Source of the DNA: Escherichia coli | GTDB lineage: Bacteria; Pseudomonadota; Gammaproteobacteria; Enterobacterales; Enterobacteriaceae | Length of the DNA stretch: 64,000 nucleotides | Assembly: GCF_009931435.1 (NCBI RefSeq) | Contig: NZ_CP043414.1 | Direction: 5' to 3' (one strand) | Part shown: piece by piece, positions 18,197-55,495 of the stretch | Position numbering within the stretch: position 1 is the first letter of the stretch | Layout of the letters: each line of letters starts with the position of its first letter | Translations under genes and position numbers: made by a program | The notes under the pieces: model-generated | What the model saw: only the letters and a program-made list of their open reading frames with translations | Database searches by the model: none | Told to the model about the DNA's origin: nothing

Positions 18197-18337
18197 CCTT
18201 TCAGTATGTTGTTTTTGTTGATTTTATAATCAACAAATTCATTAAAAAATTTACATAACGCTGTAGCGCCCGTCATCCGTACGCTCTGCTTTTTACTTTG
18301 AGCTACATCAAAAAAAGTTCAAACATCCTTGATGCAA

Positions 18338-18546: not shown

Positions 18547-20685
18547 ATGACACCGCATGTGATGAAACGAGACGGCTGCAAAGTGCCGTTTAAATCAGAG
18601 CGCATCAAAGAAGCGATTCTGCGTGCAGCTAAAGCAGCGGAAGTCGATGATGCAGATTATTGCGCCACTGTTGCCGCGGTTGTCAGCGAGCAGATGCAGG
18701 GCCGCAGCCAGGTGGATATCAACGAGATCCAGACCGCCGTTGAAAACCAGCTGATGTCGGGTCCATACAAACAACTGGCTCGTGCTTACATCGAGTACCG
18801 TCACGATCGCGATATTGAACGTGAAAAACGCGGTCGCCTGAATCAGGAGATCCGTGGTCTGGTTGAGCAGACCAACGCCTCGTTGCTCAACGAAAACGCC
18901 AACAAAGACAGCAAGGTGATTCCAACCCAGCGCGACCTGCTGGCCGGGATTGTGGCTAAACACTATGCACGTCAGCACCTGCTGCCGCGTGACGTGGTGC
19001 AGGCGCATGAGCGTGGCGATATTCACTATCACGATCTCGATTACTCGCCGTTCTTCCCGATGTTCAACTGCATGTTGATCGACCTGAAAGGTATGCTGAC
19101 CCAGGGCTTTAAGATGGGTAACGCCGAGATTGAACCACCGAAGTCGATCTCTACGGCAACCGCGGTAACAGCGCAGATTATTGCTCAGGTCGCCAGTCAT
19201 ATTTATGGCGGCACCACCATTAACCGTATCGATGAAGTGCTGGCACCGTTTGTCACCGCCAGCTACAACAAACACCGCAAGACCGCAGAAGAGTGGAACA
19301 TCCCGGACGCCGAAGGTTACGCTAACTCTCGTACCATCAAAGAGTGCTACGATGCCTTCCAGTCGCTGGAGTACGAAGTAAACACCCTGCACACCGCCAA
19401 CGGTCAAACACCGTTTGTGACCTTTGGTTTTGGTCTGGGCACCAGCTGGGAGTCTCGCCTGATTCAGGAGTCTATCCTGCGTAACCGTATCGCGGGCCTC
19501 GGTAAAAACCGCAAAACTGCGGTGTTCCCGAAACTGGTGTTTGCGATTCGCGATGGCCTGAACCATAAAAAAGGCGATCCGAACTACGACATCAAACAGC
19601 TGGCGCTGGAGTGCGCAAGCAAGCGCATGTATCCGGATATCCTGAACTACGATCAGGTAGTGAAAGTCACCGGTTCGTTTAAAACCCCGATGGGCTGCCG
19701 TAGCTTCCTCGGCGTGTGGGAAAATGAAAACGGCGAACAGATCCACGATGGTCGTAACAACCTCGGCGTGATCAGCCTGAACCTGCCGCGCATTGCGCTG
19801 GAAGCGAAAGGCGATGAAGCCACCTTCTGGAAGCTGCTGGATGAACGTCTGGTGCTGGCACGTAAGGCGCTGATGACCCGTATCGCTCGTCTCGAAGGCG
19901 TTAAAGCGCGCGTGGCCCCGATCCTCTATATGGAAGGTGCTTGTGGCGTTCGTCTGAATGCTGACGACGACGTTTCTGAAATCTTCAAAAACGGTCGTGC
20001 GTCTATTTCGCTGGGTTACATCGGCATCCACGAAACCATTAACGCGCTGTTTGGCGGCGAGCATGTGTATGACAACGAGCAGCTGCGCGCGAAAGGTATC
20101 GCCATTGTTGAACGTCTGCGTCAGGCGGTGGATCAGTGGAAAGAAGAAACGGGTTACGGTTTTAGCCTTTACAGCACGCCAAGTGAAAACCTGTGCGACC
20201 GCTTCTGCCGTCTCGATACCGCGGAGTTTGGCGTGGTGCCGGGCGTGACTGATAAAGGTTACTACACCAACAGTTTCCACCTCGATGTCGAGAAGAAGGT
20301 GAACCCGTACGACAAGATCGACTTTGAAGCGCCTTACCCGCCGCTGGCGAACGGTGGCTTCATTTGCTACGGCGAATATCCAAACATTCAGCACAACCTG
20401 AAGGCGCTGGAAGATGTCTGGGATTACAGCTATCAGCATGTACCGTATTACGGCACCAATACGCCGATTGATGAGTGTTACGAGTGTGGTTTTACCGGTG
20501 AGTTTGAGTGCACCAGTAAAGGCTTCACCTGCCCGAAATGCGGTAACCATGACGCCTCCCGTGTGTCGGTGACTCGCCGCGTGTGCGGATATTTAGGTAG
20601 CCCGGATGCGCGTCCGTTTAACGCTGGTAAGCAGGAAGAAGTTAAGCGCCGCGTTAAACATTTGGGAAATGGGCAGATCGGTTAA
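18547..20685 (+). CDS. nrdD: Anaerobic ribonucleoside-triphosphate reductase
   Basis: 712 aa, MTPHVMKRDGCKVPFKSERIKEAIL..., C-terminal glycyl-radical region and Zn cysteines. Confidence 0.97.
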   Translation: MTPHVMKRDGCKVPFKSERIKEAILRAAKAAEVDDADYCATVAAVVSEQMQGRSQVDINEIQTAVENQLMSGPYKQLARAYIEYRHDRDIEREKRGRLNQEIRGLVEQTNASLLNENANKDSKVIPTQRDLLAGIVAKHYARQHLLPRDVVQAHERGDIHYHDLDYSPFFPMFNCMLIDLKGMLTQGFKMGNAEIEPPKSISTATAVTAQIIAQVASHIYGGTTINRIDEVLAPFVTASYNKHRKTAEEWNIPDAEGYANSRTIKECYDAFQSLEYEVNTLHTANGQTPFVTFGFGLGTSWESRLIQESILRNRIAGLGKNRKTAVFPKLVFAIRDGLNHKKGDPNYDIKQLALECASKRMYPDILNYDQVVKVTGSFKTPMGCRSFLGVWENENGEQIHDGRNNLGVISLNLPRIALEAKGDEATFWKLLDERLVLARKALMTRIARLEGVKARVAPILYMEGACGVRLNADDDVSEIFKNGRASISLGYIGIHETINALFGGEHVYDNEQLRAKGIAIVERLRQAVDQWKEETGYGFSLYSTPSENLCDRFCRLDTAEFGVVPGVTDKGYYTNSFHLDVEKKVNPYDKIDFEAPYPPLANGGFICYGEYPNIQHNLKALEDVWDYSYQHVPYYGTNTPIDECYECGFTGEFECTSKGFTCPKCGNHDASRVSVTRRVCGYLGSPDARPFNAGKQEEVKRRVKHLGNGQIG

Positions 20686-25811: not shown

Positions 25812-25986
25812 ACGTCACTATCCTTTTTTAATCTGGCGCTCATTTTACGCATATGTCGGGCAAGTGAGAAACGCATTTCAGGATAATCCGTAATTTGCTG
25901 GCGCGATTCACCTGAGCGCAACATTGAGATTATTTGTTAAGATTGTTGCGGTCGCTTTACTCCATAAACATTGCAGGGAAAGTTTT

Positions 25987-26985
25987 ATGAAAACGTTAGG
26001 TGAATTTATTGTCGAAAAGCAGCACGAGTTTTCTCATGCTACCGGTGAGCTCACTGCTTTGCTGTCGGCAATAAAACTGGGCGCCAAGATTATCCATCGC
26101 GATATCAACAAAGCAGGACTGGTTGATATCCTGGGTGCCAGCGGTGCTGAGAACGTGCAGGGCGAGGTTCAGCAGAAACTCGACTTGTTCGCTAATGAAA
26201 AACTGAAAGCCGCACTGAAAGCACGCGATATCGTTGCGGGCATTGCCTCTGAAGAAGAAGATGAGATTGTCGTCTTTGAAGGCTGTGAACACGCAAAATA
26301 CGTGGTGCTGATGGACCCACTGGATGGCTCGTCCAACATCGATGTTAACGTCTCTGTCGGTACCATTTTCTCCATCTACCGCCGCGTTACGCCTGTTGGC
26401 ACGCCGGTAACGGAAGAAGATTTCCTCCAGCCTGGTAACAAACAGGTTGCGGCAGGTTACGTGGTATACGGCTCCTCTACCATGCTGGTTTACACCACCG
26501 GATGCGGTGTTCATGCCTTTACTTACGATCCTTCGCTTGGCGTTTTCTGCCTGTGCCAGGAACGGATGCGCTTCCCGGAGAAAGGCAAAACCTACTCCAT
26601 CAACGAAGGAAACTACATTAAGTTTCCGAACGGGGTGAAGAAGTACATTAAATTCTGCCAGGAAGAAGATAAGTCTACCAACCGCCCGTATACCTCACGT
26701 TATATCGGTTCACTGGTCGCGGATTTCCACCGTAACCTGCTGAAAGGTGGGATTTATCTCTACCCAAGCACCGCCAGCCACCCGGACGGCAAACTGCGTT
26801 TGCTGTATGAGTGCAACCCGATGGCGTTCCTCGCGGAACAAGCGGGCGGTAAAGCGAGCGATGGCAAAGAGCGTATTCTGGATATCATCCCGGAAACCCT
26901 GCACCAGCGTCGTTCGTTCTTTGTCGGCAATGACCATATGGTTGAAGATGTCGAACGCTTTATCCGTGAGTTCCCGGACGCGTAA
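25987..26985 (+). CDS. fbp: Fructose-1,6-bisphosphatase class 1
   Basis: 332 aa from ATG 25987 ([26 protein letters not shown]...). Confidence 0.97.
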
Positions 26986-27017
26986 TCTCCTGCGCCTCTC
27001 CATACGGAGAGGCGTTT

Positions 27018-28013
27018 TTATCGCTGCGCAATATTGACTCTTGTCACTGGCGAACTCTGGCGATTCTCCCACAGCACCGTTAATCCACGCTGTAAGGCAA
27101 TAAAAATGAACAGCAAAATGCCGATGGCGATTTTCGTCCACCAGGAACTCAGCGTACCGTCAAAGTTGATATATGTCTGAATCAGTCCCTGAATCGCCAC
27201 GCCAAAAAGCGTCCCAAGTACTGTTCCAACGCCACCGCTCAAAAGTGTACCGCCAATCACCACTGAGGCGATAGCGTCCAGTTCCACACCTACGCCCGCC
27301 AGCGCATATCCGGCTTGGGTATAAATCGAGAAAACAATCCCCGCCAGTGTTGCCAGCCCGGTGGAGAGCATATAAATGCGAATAGTGGTGCTGCGAGTGG
27401 AAATGCCCATCAGGTTCGCCGACGTCGCGTTGCCACCAATGGCGTATACCTGATTACCAAAACGGGTACGATGCGCGAGGAATATGCCGATAACTACCAC
27501 CGCCAGCATCAGTAGCCCCATCGCACTTAAGCGACCGCCACCAGGGATTTTCCATGCAAGGCTTGAGAGCGTGTCATAAACAGGATGGTTTATCGGGATC
27601 GATTCTTCCGAAACGAGATAGCTGACGCCGCGCAAAAAGAACATTCCTGCCAGGGTAATGATAAACGCCGGGATCTTCAGGGCGTCGATCAAAAGCCCCA
27701 TAAATGCGCCGAAGGCACAGCCCATCACCAGCACCAGTGGAAACGCCAGCAGCGGCGAGAGGCCGAAATCGCCAATCACCTTTGCCAGAAACACCCCAGT
27801 AAAGGCGATCACCGAACCGACGGAGAGATCGATCCCTCCGGAGAGGATCACAAAGGTCATGCCGACGGCAATAATCCCCAGAAAGGCGTTATCGGTCAGG
27901 ATATTGCAGATCACTCTTGTGGAAGCAAAACCGGGGAACTGCGTCAGGCAGTAGAGATAGCCCAACACAAAGACGCCGATGGTGATCATCAGTGGCAAGT
28001 TACGTTTTATCAC
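27018..28013 (-). CDS. yjfF: Sugar ABC transporter permease (galactofuranose system)
   Basis: 331-aa polytopic permease; last gene of the ytfQRT-yjfF operon. Confidence 0.9.
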   Translation of the reverse strand: MIKRNLPLMITIGVFVLGYLYCLTQFPGFASTRVICNILTDNAFLGIIAVGMTFVILSGGIDLSVGSVIAFTGVFLAKVIGDFGLSPLLAFPLVLVMGCAFGAFMGLLIDALKIPAFIITLAGMFFLRGVSYLVSEESIPINHPVYDTLSSLAWKIPGGGRLSAMGLLMLAVVVIGIFLAHRTRFGNQVYAIGGNATSANLMGISTRSTTIRIYMLSTGLATLAGIVFSIYTQAGYALAGVGVELDAIASVVIGGTLLSGGVGTVLGTLFGVAIQGLIQTYINFDGTLSSWWTKIAIGILLFIFIALQRGLTVLWENRQSSPVTRVNIAQR

Positions 28014-52367: not shown

Positions 52368-53006
52368 ATGCCCGGGCGCTTTGAACTAAAACCAACCCTG
52401 GAGAAAGTCTGGCACGCGCCGGACAATTTTCGCTTCATGGACCCGCTACCGCCGATGCATCGTCGGGGGATCATTATTGCCGCTATTGTATTGGTGGTCG
52501 GATTTCTACTCCCGTCGGATGATACGCCAAACGCGCCGGTGGTGACGCGTGAAGCACAGTTAGATATTCAGTCGCAATCACAACCGCCGACAGAAGAACA
52601 GCTGCGGGCGCAATTAGTCACACCACAAAATGATCCTGATCAGGTGGCTCCGGTCGCTCCAGAACCGATACAGGAAGGCCAACCGGAAGAGCAGCCGCAA
52701 ACCTCGCAAGTGCAACCTTTCCAGCCAGATAGCGGAATTGACAATCAATGGAGCTCTTATCGTGTCGAACCCGGTAAAACAATGGCGCAGCTGTTCCGCG
52801 ACCACGGACTGCCCGCTACCGATGTCTATGCAATGGCGCAGGTAGAAGGCGCGGATAAGCCACTGAGTAATTTGCAAAATGGGCAGATGGTGAAAATCCG
52901 CCAGAACGCCAGCGGCGTGGTGACGGGCTTAACCATTGATACGGGAAATAATCAACAGGTCCTGTTTACCCGCCAGCCGGATGGCAGTTTTATTCGCGCG
53001 CGGTAG
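52368..53006 (+). CDS. ytfB: Cell-division protein YtfB (OapA domain)
   Basis: 212 aa from ATG 52368 ([16 protein letters not shown]...), SD aggagg. Confidence 0.85.
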
Positions 53007-53637
53007 ATGAAGGGTCAACCAGAAGCCAGCTAAGGATCGTCTCTTTGATGACCTTACGCCTGGCTTCCAGTGCCTGCGGTGAAACCATACTGATGTGATA
53101 AACCAGGCCAAGCGTATGTTGGTTGATCAAATAATATCCTCCAAGAGCAGCAATATTAATATTCACCTGCAACGGGTCGATATCTGGCTTAAAAATATTG
53201 CGCCGTTTGCCTTCAGCTAATAATGACTCCATTAACTGTAAGTGTGCGTGGTTAATTTCTAAAAGGCGCTGTGATTTTGCATAATGCACCCCTTTACTCT
53301 GGTTTTCACTATGCACAATTTTTAAAAACCAGGGGTTAGCAATGTAATAATCCCAGGTGAAATCGATAATTTTCTCAATGGCTTTTTGTGGCGGAAGACC
53401 TGAGAAATCAAGGGATTTTTCTTTTTGCCGAATATCATTCCAGGTATATTCCAGCACTTCGATAAATAAATTTTCTTTATTACCAAAGTGATGATAAACC
53501 GTCTGTTTACTACACTCCGCGGCCTTGACGATATTATCGACTCTGGCCCCTTCGTAACCATATTCGGCAAATTCATTAACCGCACATAACAACAGCTTTT
53601 CCTTCAGGCTTTGTACGTTGCTGGTATCAAGATACAT
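52990..53637 (-). CDS. TetR/AcrR-family transcriptional regulator (probable full-length counterpart of K-12 ytfA)
   Basis: HTH ...[28 protein letters not shown]...; likely start ATG 53637 (MYLDTSNVQ..., 215 aa), the track ORF starting at 53697; divergent from the SDR operon, convergent with and overlapping ytfB. Confidence 0.8.
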
Positions 53638-53759
53638 TCCGCTTCCCCACGTCTTCTTCGTGATGACTATCTTAACCCGATTTGTTAGAAGCTCCACTAA
53701 AATGGCTAAAAACTCGCAATTTCATCGGGTTATCAAATGCTCTGTGATCATTATCGCAT

Positions 53760-53781
53760 ATCAACCAACTAGATGGTTGAT
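53760..53781. promoter_or_regulatory. Perfect palindrome in the divergent TetR/SDR intergenic region (candidate TetR operator)
   Basis: atcaacca-actaga-tggttgat, 8-bp perfect arms, about 70 bp upstream of the SDR start. Confidence 0.5.
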
Positions 53782-53848
53782 CTTTCTTGCCACACATTGC
53801 AAGCTAATCGTCACTTAAGGAAATAATATTCAAAAAGAGGGTTATCGT

Positions 53849-54640
53849 ATGAAGTCAACACGTCCTGTTGCTGTCATCACTGGAGCCGCACGTGGTATTG
53901 GAAAGGGCTGTGCACTGGAACTTGCGCGTGGCGGATTTAATCTGCTGATTAATGATCGTCCGGATGCCGACAGCGTAGAAAAATTACATGCCACACAACA
54001 AGAATGTCTGGCGGAAGGCGTGGAAGTGATTTGCTTCCCTGCTGATGTTGGCGATCTCTCCCTTCATGAAGAGATGCTCGACGCGGCGCAAAACCAGTGG
54101 GGACGTCTGGACTGTCTACTCAACAACGCAGGCATTTCAGTGAAAAAACGCGGTGACCTCCTCGACCTCGAACCAGACAGCTTCGACCAAAACATTGCCA
54201 TTAACACCCGTGCGCCGTTCTTCCTTGCTCAGGCATTCAGTAAGCGATTACTGGCACAGCCGAAACCGGAAGCAGAACTGCCGCACCGCTCGATTATTTT
54301 TGTCAGTTCCATAAACGCCATCATGCTGGCGATGAATCGCGGCGAATATACCATTGCCAAAACTGCCGTCTCCGCCGCAGCTCGCCTGTTTGCCGCTCGC
54401 CTTTGCAATGAACAAATTGGCGTTTATGAAGTGCGCCCTGGTCTCATCAAAACCGATATGACCATTCCGGCAACGGCTTATTACGACGAACTGATTGCTA
54501 AGGGGTTAGTGCCGTGGGGACGTTGGGGTTATCCGGCTGATATTGCTTCCACTGTCCGCGCGATGGCGGAAGGCAAACTGATTTACACCTGCGGTCAGGC
54601 GGTCGCCATCGACGGCGGCTTAAGTATGCCGCGCTTCTGA
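53849..54640 (+). CDS. Short-chain dehydrogenase/reductase (SDR)
   Basis: 263 aa with TGAARGIG cofactor motif and YxxxK catalytic motif. Confidence 0.85.
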   Translation: MKSTRPVAVITGAARGIGKGCALELARGGFNLLINDRPDADSVEKLHATQQECLAEGVEVICFPADVGDLSLHEEMLDAAQNQWGRLDCLLNNAGISVKKRGDLLDLEPDSFDQNIAINTRAPFFLAQAFSKRLLAQPKPEAELPHRSIIFVSSINAIMLAMNRGEYTIAKTAVSAAARLFAARLCNEQIGVYEVRPGLIKTDMTIPATAYYDELIAKGLVPWGRWGYPADIASTVRAMAEGKLIYTCGQAVAIDGGLSMPRF

Positions 54641-54649
54641 GGCTGAATC

Positions 54650-55492
54650 ATGAGAGATCTGTTACAACGCCCGGATTTATTCAGTATCAATACTGCGACA
54701 CTGGGCTATAAAACACCGCTACCTGCCATTATTGATGCCTGCGCCGCACGCGGTATTGGCGCGATTGCCCCCTGGCGCAGGGAGTTACAGGGTGAAGATC
54801 TCCAACAAATCGCCCGCCAGCTTGCTGCCAGTAACATGAGCGTTTCCGGTTTGTGCCGTAGCACCTATTACACCGCGCCGACGCTGACGGAACGCAAACT
54901 GGCGATTGATGATAACCGCCGGGCGCTGGACGACGCCGCTGTACTGAACGCCGCCTGTTATATGCAGGTGGTTGGCGGTCTGCCAATGGGAACAAAAGAT
55001 CTGTACGAAGCGCGGGAACAAGTGAAACAAGGGATTCGCCAGTTGCTGCCACATTCGAAAGATGTCGGCGTACCAATTGCGCTGGAGCCGCTGCACCCGA
55101 TGACCGCCGCCGATCGCTCTTGCCTGTGCACGTTACGTCAGGCGCTGGACTGGTGTGATGAACTCGATCCCGATGGTGAATTTGGCCTCGGCGTGGCGGT
55201 AGATGTCTACCACGTTTGGTGGGACCCGGATCTCGCCAGTCAGATCCTGCGTGCCGGAAAGCGCATCCTCGCGTTTCATGTTTCCGACTGGCTGGTGCCA
55301 ACCACCGATTTAGTCAATGACCGGGGAATGCCGGGAGATGGCGTAATCAATATTCCGTCTATTCGTCGCCAGGTAGAAAATGCCGGATTTAACGGTGCTG
55401 TGGAACTGGAAATATTCTCGCCGTACTGGTGGCAAAAAGATATTAACAGCACGCTGGATATTAGCGTCGATCGCATCGCGCATTATTGCTAA
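54650..55492 (+). CDS. Sugar-phosphate isomerase/epimerase-like TIM-barrel protein (xylose-isomerase-like fold)
   Basis: 280-aa ORF 9 nt after the SDR stop; family assignment by overall resemblance only. Confidence 0.6.
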   Translation: MRDLLQRPDLFSINTATLGYKTPLPAIIDACAARGIGAIAPWRRELQGEDLQQIARQLAASNMSVSGLCRSTYYTAPTLTERKLAIDDNRRALDDAAVLNAACYMQVVGGLPMGTKDLYEAREQVKQGIRQLLPHSKDVGVPIALEPLHPMTAADRSCLCTLRQALDWCDELDPDGEFGLGVAVDVYHVWWDPDLASQILRAGKRILAFHVSDWLVPTTDLVNDRGMPGDGVINIPSIRRQVENAGFNGAVELEIFSPYWWQKDINSTLDISVDRIAHYC

Positions 55493-55495
55493 GGA

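Follow-up and report, generated by a model that had tools for sequence, protein, structure and literature searches.

Which protein reads the 22-bp palindrome that separates two divergent genes in a variably present island of the Escherichia coli chromosome, and which of the two flanking promoters does it serve? The question arises in a 64,000-nucleotide stretch of E. coli DNA (hereafter the window; contig NZ_CP043414.1 of assembly GCF_009931435.1), in which ytfA, a gene for a TetR-family regulator, faces away from an operon that begins with a gene for a short-chain dehydrogenase/reductase (SDR) and ends with a transporter gene. The comparison of orthologous loci reported here indicates that the palindrome is very probably the operator of the adjacent presumed repressor, YtfA, through which the SDR-to-transporter operon would be kept off, a reading that draws on sequence comparison. 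The elements at the centre of the argument are the following, with positions counted along the window.

53760-53781, no strand assigned: the 22-bp palindrome ATCAACCAACTAGATGGTTGAT, proposed operator of the TetR-family protein YtfA, analyzed for sequence, palindrome score and conservation.
52990-53637, minus strand: ytfA, encoding a 215-aa TetR-family regulator (TetR_N plus TetR_C_29), the presumed binder of the palindrome, analyzed through Pfam, annotation and fold.
53849-61268, plus strand: the presumed target operon of six genes, analyzed for domain content and gene order in relatives.

The palindrome reads ATCAACCA-ACTAGA-TGGTTGAT, with perfect 8-bp arms, a 6-bp spacer and a symmetry axis between 53770 and 53771, in exact agreement with a preliminary description of this DNA that had reported a perfect atcaacca-N6-tggttgat at 53760-53781. 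The CTAG at its centre is also palindromic, bringing the complementary pairs of the 22-mer to 10 out of 11, and only three 22-mers of this quality, the proposed operator among them, exist in the 64 kb. Its host is the 211-bp intergenic region between the minus-strand TetR gene and the plus-strand SDR gene. From the end of the palindrome to the SDR start codon (ATG 53849) there are 67 nt, or 78 nt when counted from the centre, so that the distance of "about 70 bp" given in the preliminary description stands.

By itself, the palindrome is not beyond chance at the scale of the window, because about one such element is expected per 64 kb. First-order Markov simulations yield a mean of 1.07 perfect 8-N6-8 repeats against the three observed, and inverted repeats with spacers of 0-12 nt number 50 in the window against 15 expected. 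The expectation for the palindrome falling inside this particular 211-bp region is nonetheless of about 0.003 by our own arithmetic (190 positions / 4^8). What lends the palindrome its significance is conservation: all orthologous loci examined, from different genera and unrelated genomic contexts, have an identical or near-identical site at that place, with an information content far above that of its flanks. Hence, even though random sequence of this length would be expected to hold roughly one perfect 8-N6-8 repeat, the notion of a chance palindrome devoid of function is extremely improbable.

The comparison set comprises 18 orthologous loci from public data which, together with the window, make up 19. 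Six Escherichia lineages are represented (E. coli SaT040, 1943, E69 and SCPM-O-B-8794, E. whittamii and E. albertii), alongside loci from Citrobacter, Klebsiella spallanzanii, Salmonella, Lelliottia, Entomohabitans and Leminorella and a distant group of six relatives, whose regulator is 57-65% identical in alignment and whose clusters reside in unrelated genome neighbourhoods. Five members of this distant group come from metagenome or read-archive assemblies and one from an NCBI assembly labelled Salmonella enterica. A scan of a genome collection with peptide patterns of the helix-turn-helix (HTH) domain contributed 10 loci, and most orthologues were fetched individually. The locus of enterotoxigenic E. 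coli (ETEC) strain H10407 was fetched later and lies outside the 18-locus totals, with which it agrees. Gene order beside tetR (as the regulator gene is also called below) is identical in all loci with long flanks, and the shorter loci show the first three or four genes in that same order.

Across this set, the site is kept in seven named genera (Escherichia, Citrobacter, Klebsiella, Salmonella, Lelliottia, Entomohabitans and Leminorella) and in the distant group. Its core, AACCAAC-N5-GGTTG (53763-53769 and 53775-53779), occurs once per locus and always in the gap between the TetR and SDR genes (8-19 kb scanned in each of the 18 loci; once in the window), and it was not found in K-12, where the region is deleted, or in non-orthologous loci. 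In 15 non-redundant lineages, the 22 positions of the site average 1.67 bits per position against 0.45-0.76 in the surrounding intergenic DNA, and the site is unchanged across E. coli lineages that differ by 10-15% in their intergenic DNA. The bases that never change are AACCA(AC) and (T)GGTT(G) of the inner half-sites. Variation is seen at the centre of the palindrome (CTAG, CCAG, CTAT, CCGA) and in its outer left arm (ATC, ACC, TCC, TTT, CTT, CTA), which changes without compensation on the right side, and the outer right arm is conserved. Non-compensatory variation combined with a variable centre is the pattern of a dyad recognized by a protein, and not that of an RNA stem.

This pattern bears directly on the possibility that the palindrome encodes an RNA hairpin, acting as a weak intrinsic terminator or attenuator (a stem followed by a T-run) of transcription arriving from upstream. 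A terminator scan did flag an 8-bp stem with a 6-nt loop and the tail CTTTCTT, with a fold energy of -9.1 kcal/mol (z = -2.1) in one calculation and of -8.5 kcal/mol in the comparison across lineages, and a T-run follows the palindrome in most lineages, reaching T7 in the distant group. However, only three of the eight pairs in this stem are G-C, the stem is less stable in the distant group (-4.6 to -6.6 kcal/mol), and Entomohabitans, Lelliottia and one metagenomic relative (L020) have no T-run. The changes in the arms are non-compensatory, and it is the sequence itself that is conserved. Moreover, since the hairpin lies between divergent genes, there is no upstream gene to terminate, and since it is located upstream of the start in the promoter model set out below, it would not be transcribed. 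On these grounds an intrinsic terminator was rejected, and a role for the palindrome as an RNA hairpin of any such kind seems very improbable.

The regulator offers a complementary line of evidence. In its HTH (helices alpha2-alpha3, ending in (F/Y)GNKENLF), 24 of 26 residues are kept even in the distant group, where overall identity is about 62%, and a near-invariant HTH alongside a conserved site is what would be expected if YtfA reads that site. The site is also coupled by position to the SDR gene: in 18 of the 19 loci, the SDR start codon and the centre of the palindrome are 74-81 bp apart, and the distance from that centre to the start codon of tetR spans 118-152 bp and rises to 348 bp in Entomohabitans. 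In this last genus (L008 3700-3960), about 210 bp of extra G+C-rich DNA separate the tetR promoter from the CRP box introduced below, and this additional DNA ends with a strong promoter-like sequence, CTGACC-N18-TATAAT, directed at the SDR operon.

A sigma-70 weight-matrix scan of all 19 regions, with hexamer frequencies taken from general knowledge, provides a candidate for the promoter on which such a site might act. The predicted promoter elements and the adjoining CRP site are as follows.

53777-53782, plus strand: predicted -35 hexamer TTGATC of the SDR-operon promoter, made up of the last 5 nt of the right arm of the palindrome and one C, from the weight-matrix scan.
53800-53805, plus strand: predicted -10 hexamer CAAGCT of the SDR-operon promoter; CATCTT, CATTTT, CATCGT or TAAGTT in other genera.
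53743-53758, no strand assigned: CRP site TGTGATCATTATCGCA, centred at 53750.5, 1 nt upstream of the palindrome and 20 bp from it centre to centre.

The only positionally conserved plus-strand candidate, TTGATC-N17-CA(A/T)nnT, ranks first to third out of about 900 in 18 of the 19 loci, and its offset from the palindrome is the same across loci. The columns of the -10 hexamer carry 1.30 bits per position against 0.45 further downstream. A -10 at 53800-53805 would place the start at about 53812, the operator centre at -41.5 and the CRP site at -61.5, with the operator overlapping the -35 of this predicted promoter. A role as -35 would also explain why the outer right arm is kept while the outer left arm varies. 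In L020, an additional copy of the site, ACAAACCAACCGAATGGTTGGT (3826-3847), lies 46 bp downstream of the first (3872-3893); with its centre 43 bp ahead of the SDR start codon, it covers the predicted -10 and start region, which is a typical repressor arrangement. Taken together, the most conserved element of the intergenic region, present once per locus at a fixed distance from the SDR gene, overlapping a predicted -35 and accompanied by a near-invariant HTH, is very probably a TetR operator, as the preliminary description had proposed, at the promoter of the SDR operon.

A -35 hexamer within the right arm also lends itself to a different interpretation, by which the conserved block would be mainly promoter architecture: the right arm would act as a -35, the left arm as a docking place for CRP or for the C-terminal domain of the RNA polymerase alpha subunit (alpha-CTD), or else as a divergent -35 (TTGATA), and the symmetry would be a by-product of back-to-back -35 elements. 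In its favour, TTGAT is found at the outer ends of the arms on both strands, a minus-strand candidate (-35 TTGAT[A/T/C], N17, GACATT or TATTAT) scores 7.5-11.8 bits in the enteric group, and of the two outer arms it is the right one that is better conserved. The invariant bases, nevertheless, are the inner ones (AACCAAC, GGTTG) and not the TTGAT ends, and the distant group loses the left outer arm (TTT, CTT, CTA) while its inner half-sites remain perfect. Back-to-back -35 elements, furthermore, need no inner symmetry, and the second copy in L020 sits where no -35 would be expected. We thus regard promoter architecture as an unlikely explanation for the block as a whole.

The CRP site that abuts the palindrome supplies a second regulatory input. 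The sequence TGTGATCATTATCGCA fits the pattern TGTGA-N6-TCACA, with arms that are conserved and a 6-nt spacer that varies freely across loci; its right half reads TC(A/G)CA in all loci but L020 (TCAAA). Chromatin immunoprecipitation followed by sequencing (ChIP-seq) of CRP in ETEC H10407 assigned a high-confidence peak to the interval from ETEC_4557 to ETEC_4558, the latter being ytfA, with TGTGATCACTATCGCA as its site (PMC4287617, Table 1), and in the H10407 genome this 16-mer directly adjoins ATCAACCAACCAGATGGTTGAT. Occupancy by CRP in vivo has thus been shown in strain H10407, which is not the strain of the window. We locate the H10407 motif at 1594-1609 of our extracted locus L024 (NC_017633.1, about 4941093-4941108), some 190 bp away from the published peak centre (4940903), and the ChIP-seq study searched for motifs within 50 bp either side of peak centres (PMC4287617); a coordinate-version offset may account for the discrepancy.

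The centre of the CRP site lies 61.5 bp from the predicted start of the SDR operon and at about -89 relative to the conserved tetR promoter described below, for which it is out of helical phasing. A position of -61.5 is canonical for class I CRP-dependent activation, and -72.5, -82.5 and -92.5 are class I positions as well. Because an occupied CRP site abuts the palindrome, regulation of the operon is likely to be dual, by CRP and a repressor, and not by the TetR protein alone. Two GATC (Dam) sites were observed in this stretch, one belonging to the CRP box (53746-53749) and the other to the -35, at the right-hand end of the palindrome (53779-53782), the latter being kept in 17 of the 19 loci; the methylation state of the GATC sites could report occupancy in vivo.

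A plausible mechanism can be put forward from these elements. Without inducer, a YtfA dimer, or a pair of dimers, would sit on the two AACCA/TGGTT half-sites. With the right arm doubling as the -35 of a weak sigma-70 promoter, and the site placed between that promoter and CRP, bound YtfA would block both the polymerase and its contact with CRP, and the SDR-to-transporter operon would thereby be kept off. Binding of an inducer to the C-terminal domain of YtfA would make the repressor leave the DNA, and cAMP-CRP at about -61.5 would then recruit the polymerase. The transported organic acid, or a coenzyme A (CoA) thioester intermediate, presumably serves as inducer, and the operon would be on only with inducer present and the preferred sugar absent. 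As for tetR, it would apparently be expressed from a separate conserved promoter about 100 bp away, which the palindrome does not overlap.

That promoter bears on the second half of our opening question and is represented in the window by the following element.

53669-53674, minus strand: conserved tetR-proximal -10-like hexamer TAAGAT of a predicted promoter, 96 bp from the centre of the palindrome.

A hexamer of this type is present 33-44 nt before the tetR start codon in all 19 loci (TATGAT, TATAGT or TATAAT elsewhere), often accompanied in the distant group by an upstream TG. It lies 85-110 bp from the centre of the palindrome, and 312 bp away in Entomohabitans, so that the palindrome would sit near -108 of the conserved tetR promoter. 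A scan with the site matrix revealed no second operator-like site of at least 12 bits near this promoter. For the conserved tetR promoter, these results do not support the claim in the preliminary description that the site exerts control over both divergent promoters. An alternative minus-strand promoter for tetR, with the left arm of the palindrome as its -35, exists in the enteric group only, where CRP would cover it, and some weak autoregulation of tetR by this route may occur. In Tn10, operators overlap both divergent promoters and tetR is autoregulated. Autoregulation through a shared operator that overlaps the promoter of the regulator, as in the tetR/tetA pair of that element, does not appear to extend to the conserved promoter of ytfA, which is about 100 bp from the single site. 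The island thus provides a worked example of a divergent TetR gene that is probably not autoregulated through a shared operator.

The vicinity of the tetR promoter holds two further features that were considered and set aside. A 9-bp perfect inverted repeat (TAACCCGAT at 53673-53681 and ATCGGGTTA at 53724-53732) overlaps the tetR -10 region; its complementarity is kept by a matching double change in SaT040 and E. whittamii and is broken in 1943, E69 and E. albertii. As an RNA feature it is not conserved and is probably due to chance. An 11-codon open reading frame (ORF), MLCDHYRISTN*, spans 53736-53771, is preceded by a sequence that is similar to a ribosome-binding site and resembles that of the SDR gene, and takes as its stop codon the TAG at the centre of the palindrome. 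As a leader peptide it lacks conservation, its ATG being lost in strain 1943, and it is probably not functional.

If the palindrome is read by a protein, that protein might yet be a regulator other than the adjacent one, such as a global or unlinked factor of the FNR/CRP family, of the GntR family or similar to RutR. The arms do contain ATCAA and TTGAT, the words of FNR half-sites, and ACCA/TGGT forms the core of the 16-bp RutR box, TTGACCAnnTGGTCAA (PMC2475637), RutR being the closest characterized structural neighbour of YtfA. The FNR consensus is nevertheless TTGAT-N4-ATCAA, whereas the palindrome holds these words in reverse order and 12 nt apart, and an FNR site was discarded on this account. 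The resemblance to RutR goes somewhat further. Among solved structures, the YtfA model is closest to an uncharacterized Corynebacterium protein (3npi) and then to E. coli RutR (Foldseek TM-score, a measure of structural similarity, 0.74-0.80), and the RutR operator shares its ACCA...TGGT orientation with the palindrome. RutR contacts two successive major grooves (PMC2475637, PMC2952853). Yet ACCA and TGGT, 2 nt apart in the RutR box, are 6 nt apart in the palindrome, the flanks differ, sequence identity is of about 20%, and YtfA scores 36 bits against a RutR family cut-off of 368, so that membership in the RutR regulon was rejected and only the analogy retained.

The two proteins differ also in the reach of their sites, for RutR senses uracil and thymine and has many intragenic sites, whereas the palindrome is exclusive to one promoter in all the DNA scanned. 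It travels with ytfA and the operon into unrelated contexts and appears nowhere else in 309 kb, and such exclusivity is not expected of the site of a global factor. Control by a different palindrome-binding regulator therefore strikes us as quite improbable, and we infer that YtfA is the binder.

The extent of this exclusivity was assessed with a weight matrix built from 15 sites, which was used to scan 309 kb, including the whole window, at a threshold of 12 bits. Beyond the orthologous sites, no match of at least 12 bits was found in these 309 kb except beside three of four very distant TetR homologues. The palindromes beside these homologues take the form TAAC[C/T]AAC...[T/A][G/A]GTTA. In a Spirochaete (L012 3931-3952), the palindrome is flanked by a TTGACT hexamer on one side and the TetR gene on the other; in a member of the Clostridiaceae (L013 9-30 and 820-841), two copies flank the TetR gene; and in Duganella (L009 8391-8412), it is located in the promoter region of the operon adjoining the TetR gene. 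Counts as high as these arose in 0/150, 4/150 and 0/150 composition-matched shuffles. These related palindromes may represent a broader operator class of the subfamily.

Combining this observation with the geometry of the E. coli locus leads to a more ambitious proposal, in which the right arm would be at once half-site and -35, wedged between a class I CRP site and the polymerase; YtfA would both occlude the promoter and act against activation by CRP, gating a widespread catabolic island for CoA-dependent use of an organic acid; and AAC(C/T)AAC...GTT palindromes would be the operator class of a TetR_C_29-like subfamily extending beyond the Proteobacteria. We advance this proposal tentatively, as a possible and somewhat speculative extension.

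Several observations weigh against the assignment of the palindrome to YtfA as repressor of the operon, or at least temper it. The predicted promoter is weak, at 5.4-8.9 bits and with CAAGCT as its -10 in Escherichia, and a simple sigma-70 consensus scan of 53500-53950 found no promoter. A weak core is typical of activator-dependent promoters. The geometry of -41.5 and -61.5 rests on a predicted start site, the spacing between CRP site and operator is 1 nt shorter in the distant group, and the conservation of the right arm could derive in part from its role as -35 instead of from repressor contacts. The three distant TetR proteins with related palindromes share the recognition helix NKA[ML]IYY[YH]F, in which region they are identical to YtfA at 11-13 of 26 residues, and no such palindrome accompanies a Halomonas protein of equal similarity, which leaves the distant palindromes as suggestive evidence for the way the motif is read. 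Lastly, literature searches with ytfA and with the H10407 locus tags returned no functional study of ytfA or its operon beyond the table of the CRP ChIP-seq work, and those with the operator sequence together with "TetR", or with the names of the operon gene products, returned nothing useful.

The proposed YtfA system can be set against several known ones. Like TetR/tetO, AcrR-acrAB and QacR-qacA IR1, it combines an N-terminal HTH with a helical ligand domain and a palindrome in the gap between regulator and target; as in such TetR-family pairs, the operator is predicted to overlap the core promoter of the target, and de-repression by a ligand would be expected. The site is 22 bp long, with half-site cores about 13 bp apart, compared with 15 bp for tetO and 28 bp for QacR IR1, and no member of TetR_C_29 with a described operator or ligand turned up in our searches. 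The resemblance to class I CRP promoters of the lac type lies in CRP being 61.5 bp from the predicted start, in the weak core and in a local repressor that would provide specificity. The main lac operator is downstream of the start, whereas the proposed YtfA operator lies between CRP and the -35. By analogy, YtfA could interfere with the contact between CRP and polymerase somewhat like CytR does at CRP-dependent promoters.

The acyl-CoA-responsive TetR regulators (Bacillus FadR/YsiA, Thermus PfmR and mycobacterial KstR2) are weak neighbours of YtfA in sequence and structure, although YtfA scores far below their family cut-offs (44 bits against 200 for FadR). Some databases label the Salmonella orthologues "KstR2", an automatic name that does not constitute evidence. 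Given these weak neighbours and an operon that encodes dehydrogenase-type enzymes together with a CoA-transferase and an enoyl-CoA hydratase, the inducer could plausibly be a CoA thioester; by analogy, a CoA thioester or the transported acid would be a reasonable guess.

The presumed target operon comprises the following genes, all on the plus strand.

53849-54640, plus strand: SDR.
54650-55492, plus strand: xylose-isomerase-like TIM barrel protein.
55496-56278, plus strand: enoyl-CoA hydratase.
56288-57829, plus strand: fused family-I CoA-transferase.
57826-59898, plus strand: 690-aa FAD_binding_2 flavoprotein of the fumarate-reductase/aspartate-oxidase type.
59991-61268, plus strand: MFS transporter of the galactonate/ACS type.

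The identity of the regulator itself is well supported by its domains (PF00440, E=2e-13; PF17938, TetR_C_29, E=2.8e-30) and by an AlphaFold model with an all-helical TetR fold (mean confidence, pLDDT, of 92.5) whose best structural matches are all TetR-family proteins. The E. coli annotation of the ytfA product is TetR/AcrR, and ytfA is listed as a variably present TetR-family transcriptional regulator in a survey of such factors (PMC6790063).

The island is flanked by cycA, fklB and ytfB on one side and by yjfZ, rplI, rpsR, priB and rpsF on the other, which places it in the Escherichia chromosome; in SaT040, HipA-like toxin-antitoxin genes occupy the position that yjfZ has in the window. An intact copy is present in approximately 58% of complete E. 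coli genomes (about 3,130 of 5,426), and the island is found as well in some lineages of Salmonella, Citrobacter, Klebsiella and others. Over the stretch from the TetR to the SDR gene, identity to the window reaches 99% or more in only 17 of the 5,135 matching complete E. coli genomes and is 90-95% in most. In K-12 (L003), a deletion corresponding to about 53393-61400 of the window runs from within the regulator gene to just before yjfZ; the HTH, operator, CRP box and entire operon are lost, and what persists as the pseudogene ytfA is only the C-terminal part of the regulator. Through this loss in K-12 the island escaped classical genetics.

The type of system outlined here is ordinary, and a local repressor combined with CRP is a textbook mechanism. 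What is new is the operator and the regulatory logic for an uncharacterized regulator and a widespread, uncharacterized island, and the value of the analysis lies in annotation and in opening a pathway, not in a new principle. The operator and the occupied CRP site provide a concrete experimental entry point to that pathway, and using the palindrome as a handle in the search for the inducer is reasonable but generic.

Two versions of the island were observed: that of the window has an MFS transporter, the other a TRAP transporter of the DctQ/M/P type (L002 15916-18760; L001 17423-19184), and both point to an organic acid as substrate. One candidate, the acyl-CoA deoxyribonate cluster of Klebsiella michiganensis, was rejected as the identity of the island, since that cluster contains a CoA-synthetase, a thiolase, a glycerate kinase and a lactonase and is thus a different set of genes.

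Elsewhere in the window, another palindrome with 10 of 11 complementary pairs, TTGTTGATTTTATAATCAACAA, is located at 18215-18236, about 310 bp upstream of a 712-aa ORF (18547-20685), with the FNR-like sequence TTGAGctacATCAA nearby at 18298-18311; this palindrome may be the site of another regulator. A G+C-rich palindrome, CGCCTCTCCATACGGAGAGGCG, at 26993-27014, lies between the convergent ORFs 25924-26985 (plus strand) and 27018-28013 (minus strand) and looks like a bidirectional terminator hairpin.

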